Shown: positions 1,447 to 18,229 of the stretch, in pieces
How the letters are laid out: each line of letters opens with the position of its first letter
Numbering within the stretch: the first letter of the stretch is position 1
Source: an uncultured virus (IMG/VR IMGVR_UViG_3300025390_000008)
Lineage: Duplodnaviria; Heunggongvirae; Uroviricota; Caudoviricetes
IMG/VR virus record: IMGVR_UViG_3300025390_000008
Direction: 5' to 3' (one strand)
DNA: 20,000 nucleotides
Position numbers and translations under genes: made by a program
The notes under the pieces: model-generated
The model's database searches: none
Seen by the model: the letters and a program-made list of their open reading frames with translations, nothing else
Told to the model about the DNA's origin: nothing

Positions 1447-3285
1447 ATGGCGACTTCACCTAACGCGATGATGGGACAGGTGGCACCTGGTGCTCCGTCA
1501 AATTTATCTCCTTCTGTCATTGCTCAGCTGCAGCAGGAAATGATGGTTATGCCGCTGGACCAGCTTCAGCAGTATGCCCAACAACACATGGACGACCCCG
1601 TCTACGGTCCTACGGTTGTATCGATGGCGTCGTATGTCGCCAACATGAAGAAGTCTGCCCAGGCTCCTCAAGTTAACGCTACCCAGCCTACCGTGGCCCA
1701 ACAGGCCGTGCAAAACATTGCTCCTCAACAAGCGCCTCAAGGTATGCCCATGCAGGCTCCTCAGGCGCGCCCTACCCAAGGACCGGTAACGCCTGCCCTG
1801 CCGGAAGATCAGGGTATTGGTCAGCTGATGGCCAAGAACATTGAGAACATGGCTGGCGGCGGTATTGTTGGTTATGCGGGCGGTGGTCATGTTCCAAGCT
1901 ATGCCGGAAGCACTGACGGTAGTTTGGTAACAGGGACGAGTACTGGAGATATCAACTCTCGGTTCTCCAACTTGGCCTCGCAGGTAAATCAAGCTCAGAA
2001 TCAATTGGCGGGCGCTTATGCCTCTGGCGATCCTCAGTCCATATCCCTGTATCAATCTCGTCTAGCAGATCTGAAATCTCAACTGAATAATCAGGCTGGT
2101 AATCAGGCGGACCTATTGCTTAGGCAGAATCCTCAACCAATGGGTGCAGCCATTCCTACTACGGCTCCTGCAACGGCGGCGGCTATGGCGGCTCCTCCTG
2201 GTGAAGCTAGTAATGCGTCGCCTACTACGCCTGCGCCAGCCCCTGCTGCTGCACCGGCAACACCCGGAGCAACTGGTAATATTACCAGCGGCAACTCAGC
2301 AATGAGTCAAGGTTTGGGATCGTTTGTATCGCCCACCGGTAAGATGATTGCAGATGCCAAGAAAGCCTTGGGTGATGATGCTAATATGACTTTGAAAGAT
2401 CACGTTGCTCAGGCCCAAGGTATGCTGCCTCAGGTATATAGCTCTGATGATGCTGATCTTGAGATCCAAGCACAGAAGTTTAGAGATGCTGTGGGCGGTG
2501 ATCCTGCATTCAAGAAAGACCTTGACCGACTGGATAAGTTGGATAGCAAGTTGGAAAAGAACAAGCAAGATTCTGTTGGAATCAATACCTTGTTGGCTGG
2601 CTTGAGCATGATCAGGTCTGGTAATCCTTGGGAGGCTATTGCACAAGGTGCGGGCACTGGTCTCAAGAGTTACAAAGATGATATGGACAAGATTGACAAA
2701 GCCCAAGAAGAGCATGAAAAGATGCGTCAGAACTTGGATGTTGCGGCTATGGCTAACAACATGGGCTTTACCCGTATGGCTGCTGACAGCGTTAAGGAAG
2801 CCAAGTCGGCTCAGGTTCGCTCGGCTGAAGCTGCTTTGAGTGCGGGCTCTCATGCTTTTGATGCTGAGCAGCAACGCATGACTACTTTGGCAGGCGAAAA
2901 TATTCGCGGTCAGTATGGTCTGCAGCAAGCGGCAATTGGTGCTAATGCTCCGTCTCAAGAAATCAAAACCTTGTCGGCATTCGCAAGCAATCCGCAGTTG
3001 GCTGAGCAATACAAAAACTCGCCTCAGTATCAGGCCCAGTTGCGGAATGATATTGTGAGCGCCATGAATACTGCACAAAAGACGCTTGGTGATTTGACTG
3101 CCAGCGAAGATGACCGCGCAGAGGCTCGCAAGAAGATTGTTGGCTACCAGAACCAGCTTCAAGCAATGTTCAATCAAAATGCACCATTACCGGCTGGCCT
3201 GCCGACTGGCGCAAAGTTTGTGGGCACCAGCGGTGGCAAGCGCGTATATGAATTGCCAAACGGTAAGCAAGTGGTTGAACAATAA
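1447..3285 (+). CDS. Putative internal virion/ejection protein (612 aa)
   Basis: RBS AAGGA before ATG1447; MAGGGIVGYAGGG motifs; Pro/Ala linker and helical/coiled-coil C-half; lies between the pilot-like and giant virion genes. Confidence 0.65.
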   Translation: MATSPNAMMGQVAPGAPSNLSPSVIAQLQQEMMVMPLDQLQQYAQQHMDDPVYGPTVVSMASYVANMKKSAQAPQVNATQPTVAQQAVQNIAPQQAPQGMPMQAPQARPTQGPVTPALPEDQGIGQLMAKNIENMAGGGIVGYAGGGHVPSYAGSTDGSLVTGTSTGDINSRFSNLASQVNQAQNQLAGAYASGDPQSISLYQSRLADLKSQLNNQAGNQADLLLRQNPQPMGAAIPTTAPATAAAMAAPPGEASNASPTTPAPAPAAAPATPGATGNITSGNSAMSQGLGSFVSPTGKMIADAKKALGDDANMTLKDHVAQAQGMLPQVYSSDDADLEIQAQKFRDAVGGDPAFKKDLDRLDKLDSKLEKNKQDSVGINTLLAGLSMIRSGNPWEAIAQGAGTGLKSYKDDMDKIDKAQEEHEKMRQNLDVAAMANNMGFTRMAADSVKEAKSAQVRSAEAALSAGSHAFDAEQQRMTTLAGENIRGQYGLQQAAIGANAPSQEIKTLSAFASNPQLAEQYKNSPQYQAQLRNDIVSAMNTAQKTLGDLTASEDDRAEARKKIVGYQNQLQAMFNQNAPLPAGLPTGAKFVGTSGGKRVYELPNGKQVVEQ

Positions 3286-9512: not shown

Positions 9513-9794
9513 TTACCACTCAGCGGATTCTGGATAGTTTTCCATGAGCCGCTGGATGGTAACGTTTAGGGCGTCGAGCTCATCCATTTTGGCGATGATC
9601 CATGCCCGCTTCTCGCCGTGGATACCCATCTTAGGTCCTTGGTGGCAGTCGTAACAGAGGGCGATGCACGTGTACTGACTGCGCTGCCGGAAGTGGTGGG
9701 CGGCGCTGGGTCCAGGTGCATTGCATACTGAGCACGGGAGAAGCTTCACCCTTTTGAGATGACGCCTCTCCTTTGCGCTTAGCTTGTTATTCAC
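9513..9794 (-). CDS. Ref/DUF968-like Zn-binding HNH-fold nuclease
   Basis: PCSVC...AHH...ALCYDCH..G..GIHG pattern; last gene of the leftward operon. Confidence 0.7.
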   Translation of the reverse strand: MNNKLSAKERRHLKRVKLLPCSVCNAPGPSAAHHFRQRSQYTCIALCYDCHQGPKMGIHGEKRAWIIAKMDELDALNVTIQRLMENYPESAEW

Positions 9795-9985
9795 TTAATC
9801 CGTTCCTCAAGGCACGCTCTGGCCGTCTCATAGGCGCGGATAGCTTTCCCTTTTGAGGTGTAGCTATCGTCGTAGCCCATGAGGGCGAACGCTGCGAAGA
9901 AGTCCAGCAGTGTCATTTCCTCGATGCTGGGGACCGGCGGTGGTGCCGCCAGTGCCTCAAGGCCTTCAAGCTTTGGCTTGCTCAT
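9791..9985 (-). CDS. Small phage hypothetical protein
   Basis: Overlaps both neighbours; MTLLDFFAAFAL resembles the common phage MTLRDYFAAxA motif. Confidence 0.65.
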   Translation of the reverse strand: MSKPKLEGLEALAAPPPVPSIEEMTLLDFFAAFALMGYDDSYTSKGKAIRAYETARACLEERIK

Positions 9986-10268
9986 AGCCTGCCTCGTTGG
10001 TCAGTTGTGTTAACTGTTCCACGATCATGTCGGTGATGGGCACGCCCGAGATGGCGATGCTCGATACCAGCTTGTGGCGCTTGACCACTTCCTCGGCGTC
10101 GCGCATGGCCTTCTTGTAGCCTGCCATGTACTGACTGTCGCCTTCAACGATCATGGTGATGGCGTCGCGGACCAGTGAAGAAGCTTTGCGTTGTCCAGCT
10201 GCTTCTTTCAGCTTGTCGTAGATGTCTCGTCGCAAGTGGACTGAGTAAGGGATTAAGCGGTCATCCAT
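9966..10268 (-). CDS. Putative ribbon-helix-helix DNA-binding protein
   Basis: N-terminal YSVHLRRDIYDKLKEAA..KASSLVRDAI fits the beta-alpha-alpha RHH pattern; coupled within the operon. Confidence 0.55.
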   Translation of the reverse strand: MDDRLIPYSVHLRRDIYDKLKEAAGQRKASSLVRDAITMIVEGDSQYMAGYKKAMRDAEEVVKRHKLVSSIAISGVPITDMIVEQLTQLTNEAGYEQAKA

Positions 10269-10681
10269 GCTTTGAACTCCTGGAGAATGTATTTAAATTG
10301 TTGTGCTGCTTCTGGGTTGGTTTTCAACTCAGTGCGGGATTGAATGTGCAGTTCTTCACGTAGCCATTCGATAGCTTCCTCCTCGGATGCCTCGAAGGTG
10401 TGGCCGATCTCATGTAACCACTCTTGGAACTTTCGGTCGGCGCAGAGCATTCCTGCCTGTTGGACGATGTCCTTGGGGCGGGGCAGCTCCTGTTCTCGGT
10501 TCATGGGTCGCTCGTTTTCATTGATGCGAACCATGACCACCTGATACCGTGCGCCAACATAGTCGCGCATGATGGCATCAGGCACTTCGTCAGGATGGAT
10601 ATTCAGGGTAAGGATATACCCAGTCTTATCCTGCTTGATGGCGACCTTTACGGCCTCGAAGTGTGGATGTGTCATGGTCAA
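10253..10681 (-). CDS. Phage hypothetical protein (142 aa)
   Basis: ATGA overlap with the upstream gene; globular composition; function not recognised. Confidence 0.75.
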   Translation of the reverse strand: MTMTHPHFEAVKVAIKQDKTGYILTLNIHPDEVPDAIMRDYVGARYQVVMVRINENERPMNREQELPRPKDIVQQAGMLCADRKFQEWLHEIGHTFEASEEEAIEWLREELHIQSRTELKTNPEAAQQFKYILQEFKAWMTA

Positions 10682-10962
10682 AATGGCAAGTCTTCCTCGG
10701 GCATGTCATGGCGTGGAGCCTGACGTGGTGCCTGAGGTTTGTAGTCGTCGTACTTCAGGCTCAGGAAAGTGCCTTTGGTTCCTTGGCGTTTCCATCCGCT
10801 GATCTTTACCTTTACCGAGAAGCCGTCTTCGGATTCTTGGATCAGTTGCTGGAGCAGGCTGATGTCGAGGTCGATGCTGCCGTTGTAGTCGGGGGCTTTC
10901 TCGCTACGCTTTGGCAGTTTGGCTGCGAACAGTGCGCCGGAGTTTGGGTATTGGTTGCTCAT
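10678..10962 (-). CDS. Putative single-stranded DNA-binding protein (94 aa)
   Basis: Start MSNQYPNSGALF via ATGA overlap with the ERF stop; APDYNG motif; acidic-aromatic EEDLPF tail typical of SSBs; directly downstream of the annealase. Confidence 0.6.
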   Translation of the reverse strand: MSNQYPNSGALFAAKLPKRSEKAPDYNGSIDLDISLLQQLIQESEDGFSVKVKISGWKRQGTKGTFLSLKYDDYKPQAPRQAPRHDMPEEDLPF

Positions 10963-11654
10963 GCTTTTGATTCCTTGTGTTGTTTGAAGATTGCCATCAG
11001 TTCGTCCCACTTGGTCTGGTTAACAGACTTGAGTGTGCTGAAGATGTTTTGGTTTACCTTGAAGATGGACATCACGTCCGACTTGCTCTTGGCGATTTCC
11101 AGAGCGAGCTTGGTTGCTTCGAGTAATAGTTCCACCCAGTTGTCGATATCAGCGCCAGGATCGGTTGTTATCTTGAGCATCCAAGGGCCTTCTACGCCGG
11201 ACATTTCTGCTGGGGCGGTCTTTGGTAATTCTGCCACTACTGTCTTGGCTTCTGGCTTGGGCTTGGCTGGTAGCGTGGAACCGGCAACGGCATCTACTTC
11301 GTCATGCTCTGATAGCTCTAGGGCGATCAACCACATGTATCGGCGCATGTAGGTATGCGTGCTACCCAGAGACTGGATAGGCTGGCCTTTGGCGTTCTCT
11401 GCCATGACGGTGGGGCTGCTGAACTGAACTGATCCGCCGTTGGGCTCGTTGTCAAATATGTCCAGTGTGGTGACGGCGGTATTGATGTTAAACACACCGC
11501 ATAGGCCTACGGCGTCCATCAGCTTGTGGGCAGTTGGCATGAAGTCGCCAAGCTCGAAGTATTCAAAGCCAGCGAACTTGTTTTTGCCGGACTTCTTGAG
11601 GTTTAGCTTGGAGAGTTCGTATCGAACTGCTTGGAGTTTTCTATACACTGACAT
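10959..11654 (-). CDS. ERF-family single-strand annealing protein (231 aa)
   Basis: Start MSVYRKLQ with AAGGA RBS; KSGKNKFAGFEYFEL and QSLGSTHTYMRRY match the ERF Q-x-x-GS-x-x-TY-x-RRY signature. Confidence 0.85.
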   Translation of the reverse strand: MSVYRKLQAVRYELSKLNLKKSGKNKFAGFEYFELGDFMPTAHKLMDAVGLCGVFNINTAVTTLDIFDNEPNGGSVQFSSPTVMAENAKGQPIQSLGSTHTYMRRYMWLIALELSEHDEVDAVAGSTLPAKPKPEAKTVVAELPKTAPAEMSGVEGPWMLKITTDPGADIDNWVELLLEATKLALEIAKSKSDVMSIFKVNQNIFSTLKSVNQTKWDELMAIFKQHKESKA

Positions 11655-11847
11655 TGTTTTTCCTTTGTTGATTGGATGGGTGGAGCAGCCATTTCGGGCC
11701 GAGCAGTTTAATGGACTGCTGTCGCTTTGCTTCGTTGGTTTCGGCCAGTACACGCAGAAGCTCTGGCGTGACGGGGCCGTGGAATATGCTGTCGCTGATA
11801 GGCTGAGGGTTCATCAGCTCTGGAAAAAATATGTGTTTAATGTTCAT
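11641..11847 (-). CDS. Hypothetical protein (68 aa)
   Basis: AAGGAG RBS and ATGA coupling with the upstream gene. Confidence 0.65.
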   Translation of the reverse strand: MNIKHIFFPELMNPQPISDSIFHGPVTPELLRVLAETNEAKRQQSIKLLGPKWLLHPSNQQRKNNVSV

Positions 11848-12062
11848 TTGTTTCTCTCCTTGTTAATCCCTGCCATGAATCCTTTGTCCCATGCCTTCGC
11901 CCAGCAGATGCACCACAGGTCGTAGTAGCCACGGTTAAGCGGGAAACCAAAGCCTTCTTCTGAAAACATGGCCTTCACGTCTTTGCGCTTTATGAACGAC
12001 TCCCACGAATTGTCTCGTTCACGGTTCATTAGTGGCACATCATCAAACAGTCCTTCAGTCAT
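11844..12062 (-). CDS. Hypothetical protein (72 aa)
   Basis: AGGAG RBS and ATGA coupling. Confidence 0.7.
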   Translation of the reverse strand: MTEGLFDDVPLMNRERDNSWESFIKRKDVKAMFSEEGFGFPLNRGYYDLWCICWAKAWDKGFMAGINKERNK

Positions 12063-12307
12063 TCTGTTTCTCCTGAATTAAGCATTTTTAAACTTCCAAC
12101 AGTTTCGTTGCCGCAGCCGTCGCCGTCGCCGAAGCCGTTGCCGTTTCCGTAGCCGTAGCCGTAGCCGTTGCCGTCGCCGTAGCTGTAGCCGAAGCCGTAG
12201 CCGTTGCCGCCGTAGCCATCGTCGCCGTCGCCGTCGCCGTTTCCGTAGCCGTAGCCGTCGCCGTCGCCGTAGCCGTAGCCGTTGCCGTTGCCTATTGGCC
12301 TAAACAT
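12059..12307 (-). CDS. Gly-rich (G-N/Y/D-G) low-complexity protein (82 aa)
   Basis: Start MFRPIG overlaps the upstream TAA (TAATG); body is a degenerate hexamer repeat. Confidence 0.65.
   Translation of the reverse strand: MFRPIGNGNGYGYGDGDGYGYGNGDGDGDDGYGGNGYGFGYSYGDGNGYGYGYGNGNGFGDGDGCGNETVGSLKMLNSGETE
12110..12292. repeat. Degenerate hexanucleotide tandem repeat (GCCGTA/GCCGTC/GCCGTT)n
   Basis: Directly visible; encodes the Gly-X dipeptide run on the minus strand. Confidence 0.9.
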
Positions 12308-12624
12308 TAAAGCCCCCAATCATCTGCAACGGGAACGCAAAACACTTCTGCATTTTGAGGCAGGTCAACACCTTGCGGTAATGGTTTGATAATTGCTTTA
12401 TCGCTCTTTGGATTAGCAATTACGCCATCAAATCCAATTGATTCCCATCGGAATAACCAAACGGCTCGGCTCAGTTTAATGCGTCCATTTTCTCGATTTA
12501 CATCTCCTGCGAAAATCCAGCCTCGATCAACCACAATTACAGCGCGAATGCCGGTTGGTGCAGGTTGTACGGAATCGGCGCGAACATAATCGACGCCATT
12601 GATAGAGATGGTTTCATTTTTCAT
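12307..12624 (-). CDS. Phage protein, DUF6948-like (105 aa)
   Basis: MKNETISINGVDYV start with AAGGA RBS (alternative start 12654); VIVVDRGWIFAG..LSRAVWLFRW; pairing with a downstream Gly-rich ORF is a familiar phage arrangement. Confidence 0.55.
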   Translation of the reverse strand: MKNETISINGVDYVRADSVQPAPTGIRAVIVVDRGWIFAGDVNRENGRIKLSRAVWLFRWESIGFDGVIANPKSDKAIIKPLPQGVDLPQNAEVFCVPVADDWGL

Positions 12625-12650
12625 TTCAATTTCCTTTGTGGTTTGGTTAA

Positions 12651-12707
12651 TCATTCTGTTATTCCTGTTGCATCCAGCGCCATGCGTAAGGCTTCGTCTT
12701 TAGTCAT
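12651..12707 (-). pseudogene. 18-aa mini-ORF MTKDEALRMALDATGITE, probable deleted cassette remnant
   Basis: Starts at the junction-repeat ATG with a full RBS; N-terminus parallels MKDEALKLALEAL of the adjacent gene; ends in another AGGA..ATGA junction. Confidence 0.6.
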
Positions 12708-13150
12708 GTGTTCTTCTCCTTGAGTTTGGCTTCGATGCGTCTTGCGTAAACATCAATGGTCTGTGTTGGCAAACCTTGTAAGCATTCTTGTATTTCCTCA
12801 TCCGTCAGCCCAACCCATGTGCGCTGTGGTGACAACATTTTTTGAACATCCCCACACATTACTTTGATTGCGTTGTAGCCTTCAGGATCATTGCTGTCTG
12901 CAAGTTCATAAGCCTCTTGCATAATCCTGATTCTGATGGGTTCAAAGTCTTTGTTGCTCATCCACCCCACAGGCTCCTGCACAGGTGCTGCAAGGGCTTG
13001 CTTAATGGCGGTGATGGCTTGTTGCGTCCGATATGAACCGCCCAGTCGCCACACAGCAACATCGCCACTATTTTCTCCAGTCAACATATCAGGAATACCA
13101 AACAGTTTTTCCAACGCCTCCAGCGCCAGCTTCAATGCTTCGTCTTTCAT
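12704..13150 (-). CDS. Modular hypothetical protein (DEALKLALEAL / QEPVGW / WVGLTDEE / IEAKLKEKNT)
   Basis: Bounded by junction repeats at both ends. Confidence 0.8.
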   Translation of the reverse strand: MKDEALKLALEALEKLFGIPDMLTGENSGDVAVWRLGGSYRTQQAITAIKQALAAPVQEPVGWMSNKDFEPIRIRIMQEAYELADSNDPEGYNAIKVMCGDVQKMLSPQRTWVGLTDEEIQECLQGLPTQTIDVYARRIEAKLKEKNT

Positions 13151-13392
13151 GTGTTCTTCTCCTGCGCTGCTTTCAAAATTGACCGAGCAAAATCAATGAT
13201 GCGGATTTCGGTCGGGGCGTATTTAATGGTCTTATCCCAAATTTGCATGATCTCTTCATGCGATAGGTCAATCCATTCGTCCTTTGCATTTAAGGATTTG
13301 CCCGTTATCTCCAGCATGTTTTTCAGGCGATGGAGTTCCATCTCAACGTCTTTGAGTTTTGAAATTGCCTCAAATGTTTTTTCGTGCTTCAT
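13147..13392 (-). CDS. Modular hypothetical protein (81 aa; WIDLSHEE..EKNT)
   Basis: GAGGAG RBS before ATG13392 (MKHEKTF); ends in the junction repeat. Confidence 0.75.
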   Translation of the reverse strand: MKHEKTFEAISKLKDVEMELHRLKNMLEITGKSLNAKDEWIDLSHEEIMQIWDKTIKYAPTEIRIIDFARSILKAAQEKNT

Positions 13393-13543
13393 CCCGCATC
13401 TCCTCAAGTACAGTTTTAAATTGGTTGTTGACAATATCCAGTTTCAACATTTCTAAAATACCAACTACATGTGATGCTGGCAAAGTACCGTTGTATTTCA
13501 TAACAAGATCAAATAATTCAACCATCAATGTACTAGCGTTCAT
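13370..13543 (-). CDS. Hypothetical protein (57 aa, MNASTLMVELF...)
   Basis: Start supplied by the junction repeat at 13540. Confidence 0.7.
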   Translation of the reverse strand: MNASTLMVELFDLVMKYNGTLPASHVVGILEMLKLDIVNNQFKTVLEEMRDEARKNI

Positions 13544-13761
13544 GTGTTCTTCTCCTTGAGTGGATCGGTTGTGAACTTGATGTCGCCAATGGCAACCCAA
13601 TAGCCCTCTCGGTATCCTTCGTAGTGAGCAAGCCACCTTCCGTTCAAATCTTCATCGCTCATGTGGGGAACGTCGCCTTTTTTCATTGCCTCGACGTAAG
13701 CGTTCTTTCGGTTGGTCGCATATCTTGCGGCATCAAGATGCAGTTGTTCTGATGGTGTCAT
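13540..13761 (-). CDS. Hypothetical protein (73 aa, ends LKEKNT)
   Basis: Junction repeats at both ends. Confidence 0.75.
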   Translation of the reverse strand: MTPSEQLHLDAARYATNRKNAYVEAMKKGDVPHMSDEDLNGRWLAHYEGYREGYWVAIGDIKFTTDPLKEKNT

Positions 13762-14042
13762 GTGTTCTTCTCCTCGGCGTAGCCGTTCTTTTGCTTGAGT
13801 TTGGCTTCAATGGCTTGGGTCAGATTACGCAACCACGATTCATCTTTTGCACAAGTGGTTGTTTCTTCAAGTGTTAGCATTTCCTCATCAGTCAGCCCAA
13901 CCCATTCACGCTTCTTTAGGCGCTCTCTTGCGGCGATTGCCCTAATAAACATTGACATGGGGTGCGTAACGGGATACGCAGATTCAAGACCAGCCTCTTC
14001 TCTAAACCAAGCTAGGTTTTTAACCAAGTCCTCGTCTGTCAT
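13758..14042 (-). CDS. Modular hypothetical protein (94 aa; WVGLTDEE..IEAKLKQKNGYAEEKNT)
   Basis: Junction repeats at both ends. Confidence 0.75.
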   Translation of the reverse strand: MTDEDLVKNLAWFREEAGLESAYPVTHPMSMFIRAIAARERLKKREWVGLTDEEMLTLEETTTCAKDESWLRNLTQAIEAKLKQKNGYAEEKNT

Positions 14043-14212
14043 GTGTTCTTCTCCTTTTCAACTGGCCCATTAAACAGCGCCATGCCCAGCGATCCAAGCA
14101 TGACCGCCTTCAACTCTTCGCGCTCCTCTTCTGGATATTCACTGGCGACCTCATCCATGATTTTCATAATGCTGGCGGCCACTTCTTTTGCGGGAATCGG
14201 CTTTGCGCTCAT
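14039..14212 (-). CDS. Hypothetical protein (57 aa, MSAKPIPAKEVAASIMK...VEKEKNT), absent from the ORF track
   Basis: Translated by hand: 174-nt open frame running exactly between two junction repeats. Confidence 0.75.
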   Translation of the reverse strand: MSAKPIPAKEVAASIMKIMDEVASEYPEEEREELKAVMLGSLGMALFNGPVEKEKNT

Positions 14213-14406
14213 GTGTTCTTCTCCTTGTCGTATGGCCCTACCCCCAACTCTTTGGCGATTTTGTGTTGCAACTCCGTGATTCGGTGAGTGTTGCCAGCCA
14301 CTTGTGCATTTAGCAAACGAACATAACCAAGCGTGTTTTCATTGTGGTCTACAAGCAAACGCAGCTCTTCTTGCAACCGTTTTAGATACGTTGTTGGTTT
14401 ATCCAT
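14209..14406 (-). CDS. Hypothetical coiled-coil protein (65 aa, MDKPTTY...DKEKNT)
   Basis: Start ATG lies in the variant junction repeat with AAGGAG RBS. Confidence 0.7.
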   Translation of the reverse strand: MDKPTTYLKRLQEELRLLVDHNENTLGYVRLLNAQVAGNTHRITELQHKIAKELGVGPYDKEKNT

Positions 14407-14743
14407 TGTTCTTCTCCTTGAGTTTGGCTTCGATGGCTCGGGCGCGACCTTCTGCTGTGATGTAATTTCCCAAACATTCATCGCGCTCCTCATCCGTCAA
14501 CCCAACCCATTCACGCTTGCCCATTGCGTTGACTGCTTTGTCCACGCTTGATTGCATCTGTTTTTGCATTCCATCAATAAAGCCACGCTCGTATTCGCTG
14601 GCGTGCTTTCGCCAATCATCGTTGATATCCTGCAGTATCTGCTTGCCCAAGTTGGACTGTCTTTCCACCTCGTTAAAGGCTTCGTCTTCCTCCGGCGTCC
14701 AATCAACGCTGAGTCGGTCAAATACAAGTTCTACTTTTTTCAT
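14399..14743 (-). CDS. Modular hypothetical protein (114 aa; WTPEEDEAF / YERGFIDG / WVGLTDEE / IEAKLKEKN)
   Basis: TAAGGAG RBS; shares modules with paralogous ORFs in the array. Confidence 0.75.
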   Translation of the reverse strand: MKKVELVFDRLSVDWTPEEDEAFNEVERQSNLGKQILQDINDDWRKHASEYERGFIDGMQKQMQSSVDKAVNAMGKREWVGLTDEERDECLGNYITAEGRARAIEAKLKEKNNG

Positions 14744-14752
14744 TGCTACTCC

Positions 14753-14974
14753 TTAGATGATGGTTGTTCTGCGGGTGGCGGACTTTGGAAAGAACACCAG
14801 CGAGAAGACGGGGAAGTCGATCTCTTCTTTCGGGTCAACCCGCTCGGTGTTAATAATTACAGCGCCTTGCTGCATGTGGCGACGTAGTTCTCCGCCGCTC
14901 ATGTCAGTGCATGGATGCTCTGCTGACATAGGAATGGCAGGGCGTAAGTTGCTCAGGTATTGCAGGGCGTTCAT
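14753..14974 (-). CDS. Small protein with S4-like RNA-binding motif
   Basis: SGGELRRHMQQGAVIINTERV resembles the S4 consensus S-x-x-E-A-R-R-L-I-x-x-G-A-V-x-I-N-G; ATGA coupling. Confidence 0.5.
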   Translation of the reverse strand: MNALQYLSNLRPAIPMSAEHPCTDMSGGELRRHMQQGAVIINTERVDPKEEIDFPVFSLVFFPKSATRRTTII

Positions 14975-15207
14975 TGCTGCTCATTCAACTTCTTTTTCAG
15001 TGCACGGTTCTCATCCATGACTTCTTGAAGCATCTTTAGATGTTCTTTGTGGCGCTGCTCCATGACGGAAACCACTTTTTCAAAGTCAAGCATCCATTTC
15101 TTGATTGCTTGCTTGAGTAGCTCGGCGTTATACCAAATGTAGTGTTCGGTGACACCTTCAATCTTTACGCTGTCTTTCACAATAAATTCTTTAGTATTCT
15201 CATCCAT
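14971..15207 (-). CDS. Hypothetical protein (78 aa, C-terminal coiled coil)
   Basis: AGGAG RBS before ATG15207 (MDENTKEF), overlapping the exonuclease stop. Confidence 0.7.
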   Translation of the reverse strand: MDENTKEFIVKDSVKIEGVTEHYIWYNAELLKQAIKKWMLDFEKVVSVMEQRHKEHLKMLQEVMDENRALKKKLNEQQ

Positions 15208-16069
15208 GTTGCTGCTCCTGGTAACGTTTCCACTGATCACAAAAAGGTGCTGCTTGGCAGTAGCCCTCGCAGCGCGTTCTACCGCCAGGACGAACCTCAA
15301 TGGCGTATCCCTTGGTCAATACCGCTTCAGCTTCTTCCAGCGTCTTGTGGACTGATTTGGCCCGCTTACCGCCCTCTTTCATCACGGCGTACATCGTGGG
15401 TTTCTCCCACATCTCTTCAGGTGTGCATTCAGGCAGGTCGAAGTTGGCGGCGATCGCAAACACGGCATCGTTGTGTGCGCTCAGGCGTCTGGCTACATAC
15501 TGCTCGGCGTATTGAAAATCCCAGATCGGGATATCAATGATGACCACTGGGGCTTGTGGGTAGTTCTCGCGGGTAGTTGCTTCGCGGGCAGACCAGTCGC
15601 GGATGATGGCGCAAATCTGCAGCTTCTTTACATTACTTTGCTTTACTTTACGAACCAGCCAAGCATAGATGTTCAGCTGGTTCTCCCAATCGGCCTTGGT
15701 GTTCATAACAGACCATGCACCAGTAACTTTGTAGTCGCTGATGATGATGCCGTCTTCCTCGACTTCTTGCAGGTCAATAGCGCCAGAGATATGCCAGCCG
15801 TTAAATTCGATGTGCAGCCGCTCTTCAACGATGTGGTGATTGTCTTTGCCGTGCTCCAAGATGCCGTGGACGGCGGAGCCAAAGATAGACCAGACCATTT
15901 CAGAGGCGTCTTGTGTCAGCTCATCCCAATGCTTGTTCTTTAGCTGAACAATGCGGGGCGAATTCAGAATTTCTGTAGCAGATATCTGGGACGCGCCCTT
16001 GGAATACTGAGGCCGCTTGATCACATTTACAAATGTGTCCGGCAAGTTGTGGACATTGGTTATACGCAT
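15200..16069 (-). CDS. PD-(D/E)XK superfamily (RecB/Cas4-like) exonuclease
   Basis: GSAVH..LE, ISGAIDL, DYK and QLNIYAWL motifs, plus C-terminal RC..YC....FC; AGGAG RBS; first gene of the recombination operon. Confidence 0.85.
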   Translation of the reverse strand: MRITNVHNLPDTFVNVIKRPQYSKGASQISATEILNSPRIVQLKNKHWDELTQDASEMVWSIFGSAVHGILEHGKDNHHIVEERLHIEFNGWHISGAIDLQEVEEDGIIISDYKVTGAWSVMNTKADWENQLNIYAWLVRKVKQSNVKKLQICAIIRDWSAREATTRENYPQAPVVIIDIPIWDFQYAEQYVARRLSAHNDAVFAIAANFDLPECTPEEMWEKPTMYAVMKEGGKRAKSVHKTLEEAEAVLTKGYAIEVRPGGRTRCEGYCQAAPFCDQWKRYQEQQHG

Positions 16070-16103
16070 TCATACTCCTATAATTGGGGTTACGAACATC
16101 CTT

Positions 16104-16118
16104 ACTGGTTGTTCTGGT
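16104..16118 (-). promoter_or_regulatory. 15-bp box ACCAGAACAACCAGT (copy 1)
   Basis: Exact copy at 18302-18316 on the + strand; both lie just downstream of a -10 element. Confidence 0.65.
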
Positions 16119-16122
16119 AGAT

Positions 16123-16151
16123 ATGCTATCAGGTATATTCTGGAAATGCAA
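16123..16151 (-). promoter_or_regulatory. Sigma70-type promoter of the leftward operon
   Basis: TTGCAT-17 bp-TAGCAT with TGn extension on the minus strand. Confidence 0.6.
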
Positions 16152-16170
16152 CACATGAGGAAAAATATTT

Positions 16171-16464
16171 ATGGCACGTAGGGCGATGAGGCAGGACGAC
16201 AATCATGGGGCGGTGGTGACTGCTCTGCGGGCGATGGGTGCTACGGTGCATACGATCAGCCAAGGCGGTGGGATACCGGACTTGCTGGTGGGTTATAAGG
16301 GGAAGACGGCGCTGCTGGAAGTGAAGGACGGGGACAAGCCGCCGAGTGCGAGAAAGCTGACGGAGCCGGAGGAGAAGTTCTTTGCGAGCTGGTCAGGTGG
16401 TCCGCTGTTTATAGTGAACAGTCCTGAGGAGGCTTGTGCCATGCTGGAGCATCTTGGAGCGTAG
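16171..16464 (+). CDS. VRR-NUC domain nuclease (Holliday junction resolvase-like)
   Basis: GIPDLLVGYKG..LLEVK..LTEPEEKF motif; GAGGA RBS. Confidence 0.85.
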   Translation: MARRAMRQDDNHGAVVTALRAMGATVHTISQGGGIPDLLVGYKGKTALLEVKDGDKPPSARKLTEPEEKFFASWSGGPLFIVNSPEEACAMLEHLGA

Positions 16465-16483
16465 TGGAGCATTGTGGTATACT
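16445..16483 (+). promoter_or_regulatory. Extended -10 promoter (TGgTATACT) preceded by three phased TGGAGC repeats
   Basis: TGGAGC at 16445, 16455 and 16465 (10-bp period); TATACT at 16478-16483. Confidence 0.45.
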
Positions 16484-16549
16484 GAACCCGCTATTGCATT
16501 CATACATCCCTTGGTGGGTTCCACGGCTTCTTCGGAGGCCGTTTTTTTT
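16484..16549 (+). ncRNA. Candidate small antisense RNA against the exonuclease RBS/start
   Basis: Stem 16484-16493/16512-16521 with loop GCATTCATAC-A-TCC complementary to mRNA GGA-GUAUGAAUGC (16066-16078); ends in a terminator. Confidence 0.5.
16523..16549 (+). terminator. Rho-independent terminator
   Basis: ACGGCTTC-TTCG-GAGGCCGT (cUUCGg tetraloop) followed by a T run. Confidence 0.9.
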
Positions 16550-16550
16550 G

Positions 16551-16566
16551 CTGGTAATATTACCAC
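16551..16566. promoter_or_regulatory. Palindrome TGGTAATATTACCA, intergenic copy of a dispersed motif
   Basis: Perfect 14-bp palindrome covering the -35 position of TACAAT (16575-16580); other copies at 2273, 5229, 6904 and 18870, near-copies at 9504 and 15218. Confidence 0.7.
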
Positions 16567-16586
16567 TTGGCAGGTACAATTGTTCC

Positions 16587-16770
16587 TGCGTACCAAGACG
16601 CATGGGGATTGGCATAAATGGCTTACCCGCTGGAATAAACCGACAAATACCGGGTTAATGCCAAGTCGGGCTAACAGTCCCCAGTCGTGTTGGTAATGGG
16701 TTGGGGGCGAGTAGGCGAAAGCTGAAAGGGTCGCCGTGTGCAGATACACCCTGCGATGCACACACCAACA
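16587..16770 (+). ncRNA. Candidate structured RNA(s)
   Basis: Stems TGGGGATTG/CAGTCCCCA (16603-16611/16675-16683), TGTTGGT/ACCAACA (16688-16694/16764-16770), GGCGA/TCGCC and GTGTGCA/TGCACAC; AGTA-GGC-GAAA-GCT-GAA loop-E/GNRA hairpin. Confidence 0.5.
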
Positions 16771-16777
16771 ATATTTT

Positions 16778-16926
16778 CGGGTTGAAGCGTGATGTGGTGG
16801 CACGATTGCACATTGGGTGCAAAACTTCTTCTGTGGCTACTTGCTTGAACGGCAACTTCTAGAGTGCGTAATAAACAGCAGGGTGTGTTAGAAGTCTATC
16901 TGGTTCGACTCCAGACGACCCGACCA
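16778..16926 (+). tRNA. tRNA-like element (Pro-like acceptor) with ~75-nt variable-region insertion and non-canonical anticodon loop
   Basis: Acceptor CGGGTTG/CGACCCG + A + CCA; T-arm TCTGG-TTCGACT-CCAGA (16899-16915); D-arm CGT..TGG..ACG; anticodon-position stem TTGCA-CATTGGG-TGCAA; total 149 nt. Confidence 0.6.
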
Positions 16927-16927
16927 A

Positions 16928-17010
16928 TTTAGGGGGAAAGCGGATGCTGGTTACTTGTTCTAGACAGGGCACATAAAGAGACACTAGACGCAGCGAGTAC
17001 CCCACCTAAA
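16928..17010 (+). ncRNA. Candidate structured RNA with loop-E/sarcin-ricin-like motif
   Basis: GGGG-GAA (16932-16938) opposite AGTA-CCCC (16996-17003); inner helices CTGGT/ACTAG and CTTGT/ACAGG. Confidence 0.45.
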
Positions 17011-17018
17011 AAAAGTTG

Positions 17019-17045
17019 TTGACAACAGTTCTATCTGTGTATAAT
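17019..17045 (+). promoter_or_regulatory. Sigma70 promoter TTGACA-15 bp-TATAAT
   Basis: Both hexamers are perfect consensus but the spacer is short (15 bp); A-tract upstream; palindrome TGTTGACAACA (17017-17027) overlaps the -35. Confidence 0.65.
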
Positions 17046-17054
17046 CCAAAACAT

Positions 17055-17200
17055 CAACGGATTGGTAACCCGTTGTAGTTCGTAGAAACGCAACCGCAAA
17101 CCCATTGGTGAGCGGGCTTCGTCAAAGCTGGGATGTCCTGTCTACGCAGGCTCTTATGCGGCAACCAAGCCTAAAGCTCGTTCACCAATGGGTTTTTTGC
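17055..17200 (+). ncRNA. C4/CI-like antisense or attenuator module
   Basis: 22-bp stem 17098-17119/17174-17195 followed by Ts; internal TCTACG (17141-17146) and ACCAA (17164-17168) complement upstream CGTAGA (17081-17086) and TTGGT (17062-17066). Confidence 0.5.
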
Positions 17201-17205
17201 TTTTT

Positions 17206-17622
17206 AGCCGTATACCTTGATCTGGTAATTTAACGGGCACATGAACGGTTTGGCCCAGATCGAGAGCCATAAAAAGTATCGACGTGGCAAGCGCGGGTGG
17301 AGATAGCGCCAGATGTTGAGTAAACCGCCAGAACGGATCTAGGTCGAGAGATTGAGGTAATCCGGGGCAACGGCAACATTTGGGACAAGCTCGGTCAGTG
17401 CGCTAAGAAGGGGTCTCACAATGGGCCTAAATGTCTGACAGCTACGGCGGAACATTGAGAGATGACCGTAGCCAATGTAACGAAGGAAACGACCGACGTG
17501 ATATTGTTCTTCAGCCAACCCCGCGTCCTGTGGGCTAGGGGTGGGTTGTGTCCAGAGCTTCAGTCTTCTCCCTCCGTGATGTGGGTGTAATACCTTGTAT
17601 TTAGTGGCTCAGACCGATACTT
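17206..17622 (+). ncRNA. Candidate large pseudoknotted RNA upstream of the HNH gene
   Basis: No ORF of 60 aa or more in the track; many 6-10-bp helices, including long-range pairings 17264-17281 with 17600-17622. Confidence 0.5.
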
Positions 17623-17635
17623 ACCGGAGATGTAG

Positions 17636-18229
17636 ATGGCTAATCAGGTTGATAAGAGAGTTAAGGGTAGTGCCTTACCTTGGTTTATCACGTCGCGGGT
17701 CCGAGCTGATCGTCGGCTGGGGCTGAGTGAGATGGAGCAGGCGTGTCTAGCCCTGGAGGCTGAAGGTATGCCCTGCCCTGCCGATGTAAGCTTTGAGGCG
17801 TGGGTCAGGACCAACTTTGCCTATATCTGTGCTAGGTATATGGAGAAGTATCCAAAGCCTATTGGCAGTAAGGTAAAGCCCCGTCCGTCCAGGGCTCAGC
17901 GCAAGGCAGCTAGTCAACTTCGTCGTAACGCCAAGTCAGAAAAAGCGCCCGTTAAGCGGGTCGTCAAGGTGTGTGGTGTTGATGTGACCACCGACGCCTT
18001 TTTATCGACGTATGAATGGCGCAGGGTGCGTATGGAGGCGCTGAAGAAGTTTGGGCCTAAGTGTCAGTGCTGTGGAGCTACTCCCGCCCAAGGAGCTGTT
18101 ATGAACGTTGACCACATCAAGCCACGTAAGCTGTATCCAAACTTAGCCCTCAATGTAAACAATCTTCAGATCCTATGCCATGAGTGCAACCACGGTAAGG
18201 GCAATTGGGATCAAACCGACTGGCGGTAA
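17636..18229 (+). CDS. HNH endonuclease (197 aa) with N-terminal extension
   Basis: CQCCG..NVDHIKP..NNLQILCHECNHGK; GGAGA RBS. Confidence 0.92.
   Translation: MANQVDKRVKGSALPWFITSRVRADRRLGLSEMEQACLALEAEGMPCPADVSFEAWVRTNFAYICARYMEKYPKPIGSKVKPRPSRAQRKAASQLRRNAKSEKAPVKRVVKVCGVDVTTDAFLSTYEWRRVRMEALKKFGPKCQCCGATPAQGAVMNVDHIKPRKLYPNLALNVNNLQILCHECNHGKGNWDQTDWR

Follow-up and report, generated by a model that had tools for sequence, protein, structure and literature searches.

To our knowledge, few small RNAs (sRNAs) with a known target have been described from phages without lysogeny genes. By their location, sar of phage P22 and OOP of phage lambda are cis-encoded perfect antisense RNAs. Both are short phage RNAs with a promoter of their own, and each represses an early gene (PMC12197685). 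C4 antisense RNA, encoded by phages P1 and P7, blocks translation of a phage gene by pairing around its ribosome-binding site (RBS); it silences an antirepressor for lysogeny, is cut from the operon that it regulates, and carries its seeds in loops (PMC12197685, PMC8198154). VpdS of phage VP882 and PreS of lambda act through Hfq and largely on host functions (PMC12197685). For sRNA1 and sRNA2 of PAK_P3, no target is reported, and sRNA2 matches a host tRNA, not gene starts (PMC4933390).

The sRNA predicted here in an uncultured tailed phage is one that would act like P1 C4, has the build of 3′UTR-derived sRNAs of type I, and belongs to no curated family. With C4, it shares its nature as a phage-encoded small RNA predicted to pair around a phage RBS and block translation, in which sequence differences could set phage specificity. 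Unlike C4, it is predicted to have its own promoter and terminator, faces away from the target operon, and comes without an integrase; instead of standing in the leader of its own target operon, as C4 does, it is found on the opposite strand behind another gene. Like type I 3′UTR-derived trans-acting sRNAs, it has its own promoter inside a gene end, a shared terminator, and a predicted action in trans. Three marks of that type are found: a promoter at the 3′ end of a gene (by sequence only; in 101 of 138 loci the −10 box starts with the stop codon), a terminator shared with the gene (166 of the 226 loci gathered), and short, imperfect, conserved complementarity to a start region, which is weak among the closest pairs. 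The type I RNAs are, however, host RNAs acting on transporter or envelope genes, whereas the phage RNA is viral, has a swappable target, and shows no sequence relation to them. Unlike sar and OOP, the phage RNA lies about 430 nt from its target (seed at 16496-16509, target at 16066-16078) and pairs imperfectly. With VpdS, PreS, and PAK_P3 sRNA1/2, it has in common that it is a trans-acting or intergenic phage sRNA.

Rfam 15 gave no match at gathering score in 15900-17700, where two matches of 21 bits against cut-offs of 45 and 50 were driven by the terminator, and over 20 related loci it found five tRNAs and nothing else; the model of the C4/P4 CI antisense RNA matched neither in this region of the window nor in those 20 loci. 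No description of the sRNA family was found in the largely open-access literature searched, and it may sit unnamed in the candidate lists of PMC10690425.

Gene neighborhood of the locus

The DNA analyzed, a stretch of 20,000 nt hereafter called the window, comes from a tailed phage, with large rightward structural ORFs as far as 9503. The features around the locus are as follows.

9513..16069, minus strand: leftward operon, a run of about 20 ORFs that abut one another and include those of the exonuclease, an ERF annealing protein, and an SSB-like protein, besides small ORFs
15200..16069, minus strand: PD-(D/E)XK exonuclease, a 289-aa ORF that heads the leftward operon here (phrog_2139, E 4e-48; PF12705, E 3e-8)
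16113..16133, no strand: inverted repeat over the divergent promoter region, a possible operator (repeat scan)
16123..16151, minus strand: predicted leftward promoter, −35 TTGCAT (16151-16146), 17 nt, −10 TAGCAT (16128-16123)
16171..16464, plus strand: 97-aa endonuclease gene, divergent from the leftward operon (phrog_93, E 1e-6)

The 97-aa endonuclease, which matches no Pfam family at E 0.01 and which we take from its motif to be VRR-NUC-like, carries the sRNA promoter in the last codons of its gene, and the rightward genes of the window lie beyond it. The leftward promoter scores 7 of 12 in the window; in 22 of 24 lineages its score is 8 or more of 12. Its leader is about 47 nt long in the window and 19-47 nt across lineages. 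A record identical to the window over 16000-16700 (G003) adds genes for ParB-N-like, helicase, Toprim, terminase, SU10-type portal, and capsid proteins. The phage capsid shares 57-71% identity with its counterparts in MinM2, HTVC023P, DSL-LC04, and CRP-902, and judging the habitat from these capsid relatives, the large group apparently consists of uncultured freshwater bacterial viruses. The nuclease profile had no match in the cultured capsid relatives MinM2, HTVC023P, DSL-LC04, CRP-902, and QDWS535, which leaves no ready-made test system among them.

Several minor observations concern this neighborhood. The leftward operon includes a low-complexity ORF of Gly-Tyr/Asp/Asn repeats (12059-12319, minus strand) and a 100-aa ORF (9966-10268, minus strand) that occurs in 45 of 54 related loci sets. 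For the latter, an atlas lead points to ribbon-helix-helix proteins (score 0.89, RHH_3 in 44% of the cluster), so that this ORF may encode a repressor acting on the inverted repeat of 16113-16133. In two relatives (L256 and L247), CTGT-N8-ACAG-like repeats, presumably SOS-box-like, stand in for the usual divergent promoter region. The nuclease ATG lies 5-8 nt past a TAnnnT box, without a Shine-Dalgarno (SD) sequence, in 10 of 31 lineages, which suggests that the nuclease mRNA is leaderless there and so could not be blocked by an anti-SD RNA; the window copy of the nuclease start (16155-16173) does have an SD.

The predicted RNA and its match to the exonuclease start

The elements of the predicted RNA and its target are listed below.

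16454..16483, plus strand: predicted sigma-70-type sRNA promoter, −35 TTGGAG (16454-16459), 18 nt, extended −10 TG-n-TATACT (16475-16483)
16484..16521, plus strand: 10-bp stem, complete only in read-through (3′UTR) nuclease transcripts; lineage-specific
16490..16549, plus strand: predicted small RNA of about 60 nt, with its start placed 7 nt past the −10 box (16488-16491 possible)
16496..16511, plus strand: seed, an anti-start-codon and anti-SD stretch (from sequence and energies)
16523..16549, plus strand: intrinsic terminator, a UUCG hairpin (found by scan at 16523-16542) and U-tract, shared with the nuclease gene
16066..16079, minus strand: predicted main target of the sRNA, SD AGGAG (16079-16075), 5-nt spacer, AUG (16069-16067)

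The −35 hexamer of the sRNA promoter overlaps the end of the nuclease gene, and the −10 TATACT occupies 16478-16483 with the TG at 16475-16476. Its score is 8 of 12, so that a 9-of-12 scan missed it; the promoter is presumably active. The terminator is the single site in the window that passes the strict terminator scan, and ARAGORN found 0 tRNAs or tmRNAs in the window. A 13-nt direct repeat with 20-nt spacing at 16445-16477 (plus strand) is a small duplication, by which the −10 box has been moved 16 nt past the stop codon in the window phage and one relative (L179).

Folding of 16484-16549 gives the 10-bp stem, an 18-nt loop, and the UUCG terminator hairpin at −26.8 kcal/mol (z −5.3), which 0 of 200 shuffles matched. 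The −10 box, stem-loop, and terminator were where the initial annotation had placed them, but the 18-nt loop on the 10-bp stem that it took for the working form was not upheld. The stem starts at the base immediately past the −10 box, most of its 5′ arm is upstream of ~16490, and it is missing in the five closest relatives among the matches listed, one of which (L182) has another stem. The same annotation had allowed that a start near 16490 would shorten the stem; in the RNA folded from 16490, the seed stays single-stranded, and the binding gain on the leader is −18.3 kcal/mol versus −9.6 for the 66-nt form. Seed accessibility is 0.57 versus 0.58 with shuffled flanks, that is, without gain.

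The sequence GCATTCATAC is found exactly twice on the plus strand of the whole window, at 16066 and 16496, and nowhere on the minus strand. The identity of 16496-16505 with 16066-16075, continuing as A-TCC versus TCC, amounts to 13 bp with one bulge that span GGAG and the AUG (16069-16067) of the 289-aa exonuclease ORF; both the two copies and the pairing had been correctly described from the start. The exonuclease start is the first-ranked partner of the loop among all 40-nt windows of the 20 kb and of the RNA body among the 55 start regions of the window phage, and the ranking against phage start regions proposed initially (here by RNAduplex) thus came out for the exonuclease. Against this start alone, 1 to 2 of 1000 dinucleotide shuffles match as well, and against any of the 55 start regions, the 10-nt match is reached in 29 of 200 shuffles and the best loop energy is equaled in 14 of 200. 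The match within a single genome exceeds chance just modestly and is weak alone.

A helicase start in the same phage as the window (L099 7023-7056, plus strand) pairs with the seed as well as the exonuclease start does, with a loop energy of −20.3, and a second-best partner as good occurs in 2 of 200 shuffles. The helicase leader is also present in two relatives (L100 and L180), where the respective RNAs match it less well, and the window seed may have gained it as a second target. As a family-wide second target the helicase start was rejected (26 lineages, advantage −0.1, p 0.40); it holds in the window phage alone. At locus L277, an ORF with a LexA-type DNA-binding domain lies directly before terminase (2495-2725, plus strand), and its start region ranks third among the partners of the RNA in this phage.

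Conservation of the unit and co-variation with the first leftward gene

The anatomy of the unit, its conservation, and the co-variation of seed and target are demonstrated in related loci. At least 226 loci with the nuclease gene, a redundant set from viral and metagenome contigs that includes the best 80 of 435 and the best 80 of 455, were gathered. A hairpin and U-tract stand within 200 nt past the nuclease stop in 166 of the 226, and 115 are distinct in sequence. Of the 60 loci that this search missed, 17 were inspected: about eight carry the unit in a form whose hairpin is imperfect or longer, and the remainder show another layout. Many other missed loci are distant nuclease homologues in other gene contexts. 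An exact-pattern scan of viral contigs returned four loci, three already known and one an unrelated capsid terminator. The unit is single-copy, and in the records scanned, its terminator and that of the capsid gene are the sole strict terminators. A 1.5-kb contig in a Cyanobium bin (L294) also carries a typical member of the RNA family; this is probably a stray phage contig, not host evidence.

Of the 166 loci, 28 were set aside because the flank was short or because a first gene, a −10, or a body was missing. In 101 of the remaining 138, a TAnnnT hexamer serving as −10 box begins at the nuclease stop codon, under a choice rule that favored the hexamer nearest the stop codon. It is a compact gene design, in which the −10 box of a promoter starts with the stop codon of the host gene. 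Since stop codons themselves supply the TA, other stop codons were used as a promoter control: a combined −35 and −10 score of at least 8 of 12 consensus positions was reached by 96 of the 123 distinct variants and by 20 of the 559 control stops, and the spacer is 17 nt in 98. RNA bodies are 47-91 nt long (median 69). The 99 distinct bodies consist of 44% U and 25% G; an anti-SD core is present in 92 (500 shuffles: mean 23, maximum 35), and an anti-start codon stands at the right distance before it in 46 versus 3 expected, whereas the SD-sense motif occurs in 0 of 99. In the subfamily with a 5′ hairpin, a count made sequence by sequence found the outer stem retained in 22 of 26, with four patterns of pairs; such pairs, kept through base changes, point to RNA. 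Automatic consensus folding of 14 of the 5′ hairpins gave two pairs and no covariation, with a poor alignment register. The idea of a trans-acting short RNA, separately promoted and terminated, accordingly gained ground as a prediction, promoter, terminator, and seed all being conserved in relatives.

The first leftward gene is not constant: there are at least nine families and seven unclustered genes among 25 lineages, and the six closest loci among the matches listed have four different first genes behind a nearly invariant leader. This variation was used to compare each RNA with its own and foreign start regions by RNAduplex energies, in which target structure is ignored, on gene starts from a heuristic caller. 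In the closest clade, both exonuclease-first phages have the CAUAC seed. The RNA of L052 (−27.9) and that of L182 (−22.6) are each the best for their own first gene, and those of L051 and L180 fit theirs poorly. With row and column effects removed, the own-phage advantage for the first gene over 25 lineages is −4.9 kcal/mol (p 0.0002), and the preference for the own first gene stands at p 0.0007 for 24 clusters and 0.008 for 12; for 41 clusters the advantage has p 0.0001, and p 0.02 for the coding part +4..+18. Mock RNAs from three neighboring stretches of the same genomes have no own-phage advantage, which argues against base composition as the cause. The duplex covers the SD in 23 of 24 cases and the AUG in 14 of 24.

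The advantage follows operon position. On 1098 start regions with a clear SD from 31 lineages, it is −5.1 kcal/mol at position 1 (22 of 25 lineages), then −2.8, −2.5, and −1.6 at positions 2-4, and about zero thereafter; positions 2-4 beat later positions in 15 of 19. It persists in the 19 lineages whose first gene is not the exonuclease (p 0.0001). When orthologue families were followed instead, p was above 0.05 in 15 of 20 families, and those with a signal include the exonuclease, a ParB-like gene, and two small families. Co-variation of seed and target, the sign of pairing initially proposed, was found in the preference of RNAs for their own first gene (22 of 25 lineages), and the exonuclease stood as target where it is the first gene, not as such: the target is a position, gene 1 and then 2-4.

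The relation is less tight in two respects. Among independent pairs with nuclease identity of at least 75%, 20 of 31 are better and 10 worse (p 0.003); at identity of at least 85%, 12 of 23 are better and 10 worse (p 0.11), without significant tracking. By rank, the first gene is the best partner in 6 of 25 lineages (0.7 expected) and among the top three in 8 (2.1 expected), and it falls far down in several, for example to 62 of 75, 34 of 35, and 31 of 78, where five rank lists include the antisense of the element itself as a row and a few first-gene calls (L125, L145) are doubtful.

Proposed action and alternative readings

Probably, these podovirus-type phages encode a family of trans-acting sRNAs that repress early translation. 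Transcription, pairing in vivo, repression, timing, and any use of Hfq are parts that we infer. Host RNA polymerase would transcribe the sRNA from the promoter that the nuclease gene carries in its final codons and stop codon, and transcription would end at the terminator of that gene. The single-stranded U/G-rich part would pair over the SD, and often the start codon, of the first leftward (recombination) gene, and more weakly with genes 2-4 as well as with a small number of further early or middle genes, and would thereby block 30S loading. As the sRNA accumulates after infection, it may cap the promoter-proximal early output (nuclease and recombination), like a brake or timer; this role appears likely because both promoters resemble host sigma-70 promoters.

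It is unlikely, though not far-fetched, that the RNA is a broad anti-leader RNA with many phage and host mRNA targets, its first-gene match reflecting the start-region style of the lineage. Such an RNA would account for the small significant advantages also seen in the other early and middle blocks (rest of the leftward operon, replication block, and far leftward cluster; −0.7 to −0.8 kcal/mol), for best partners that are often genes other than the first, and for the 53 of 99 bodies that have no anti-start codon, just an anti-SD with U/G-rich flanks. However, the first-gene advantage is about seven times larger, in the analysis of 1098 start regions the first gene is one of the top three partners for 13 of 25 lineages versus 2.8 expected, and late genes show none (+0.7). 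Distinctly improbable in our estimate is a DNA-level origin, in which the stretch derives from the leftward leader as a copy or remnant and its likeness is maintained by copying or by a dual-binding protein, the two stretches being direct repeats on the minus strand and the hairpin merely the nuclease terminator. Mirror orientation does not discriminate here, giving a nearly equal advantage (−3.25 versus −3.51, the real one favored in 19 of 41), G-U-type mismatches are barely enriched (21% versus 19%), and the likeness extends upstream of the SD (−30..−13, p 0.001). Energies alone therefore cannot separate RNA pairing from DNA-level likeness, and the direction of the RNA rests on promoter and terminator. 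Against a DNA-level origin stand a dedicated promoter conserved about 7 nt upstream of the seed, matches that are short and interrupted, 5′ hairpins that co-vary as RNA would, and conserved letters that are the SD read in complement.

That the stretch is the RBS and start of a small minus-strand gene antisense to the nuclease gene seems extremely unlikely. An SD and start codon are on the minus strand in 46 of 99 variants, some opening frames of 60-90 codons, and in the window a frame of 36 codons opens with the ATG at 16503, inside ORF 16393-16803; yet 53 of 99 have no start codon, the remaining starts are spread over all three frames (10, 16, and 20) with 2-94 codons, and promoter and U-tract both face the plus strand. 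An RNA switch between lysis and lysogeny or an immunity factor of a temperate phage, the former also suggested in the initial annotation, is very unlikely as well. Divergent promoters with an inverted repeat, the RHH-like lead for 9966-10268, two ORFs of the identical record (a weak ParB-N and one with LexA-type DNA binding), and the like action of P1 C4 (PMC12197685) would fit it. But with positive controls, tyrosine integrase (PF00589) was found in 0 of 16 related records and resolvase-type recombinase (PF00239) in 0 of 14, no integrase is present in 14 near-complete relatives, and the unit occurs in 1 of 25 genome-collection loci, the 1.5-kb contig L294. The lysogeny part of that suggestion is not supported by these counts.

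Within the preferred reading of an sRNA family repressing early translation, an immunity based on RNA only, without integrase, is conceivable, with a small chance of being right: a resident sRNA would silence the first early genes of an incoming relative. The leader stays fixed while the gene behind it is swapped, and the seed is retuned afterwards; this would then be an escape-and-chase between related phages, an extension as speculative as the immunity itself. The lag in the closest relatives fits immunity and equally well plain co-evolution. If the RNA does exclude relatives, abundant uncultured phages would have in it a mechanism of immunity that is simple. One locus provides about 100 natural sRNA variants and naturally swapped target leaders, so that the rules of the seed, the range of targets, and the RNA-based timing of early genes are open to plasmid-reporter testing without the phage.

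Two further structured stretches lie downstream. A long hairpin at 16585-16697 (plus strand) follows right past the terminator, with conserved ends and a variable middle (z −3.2 for 16566-16700); similar ends recur in many relatives, including L003-L005, L008-L013, L057, and L058, not in L051 and L052. The other, at 17050-17195 (plus strand), is strongly structured and non-coding (z −5.35, 22-bp closing stem 17098-17195, no Rfam match) and lies upstream of the rightward genes, with a promoter-like TTGACA/TATAAT pair before it at ~17019-17045; it is kept in L052, and L051 has another long hairpin instead.
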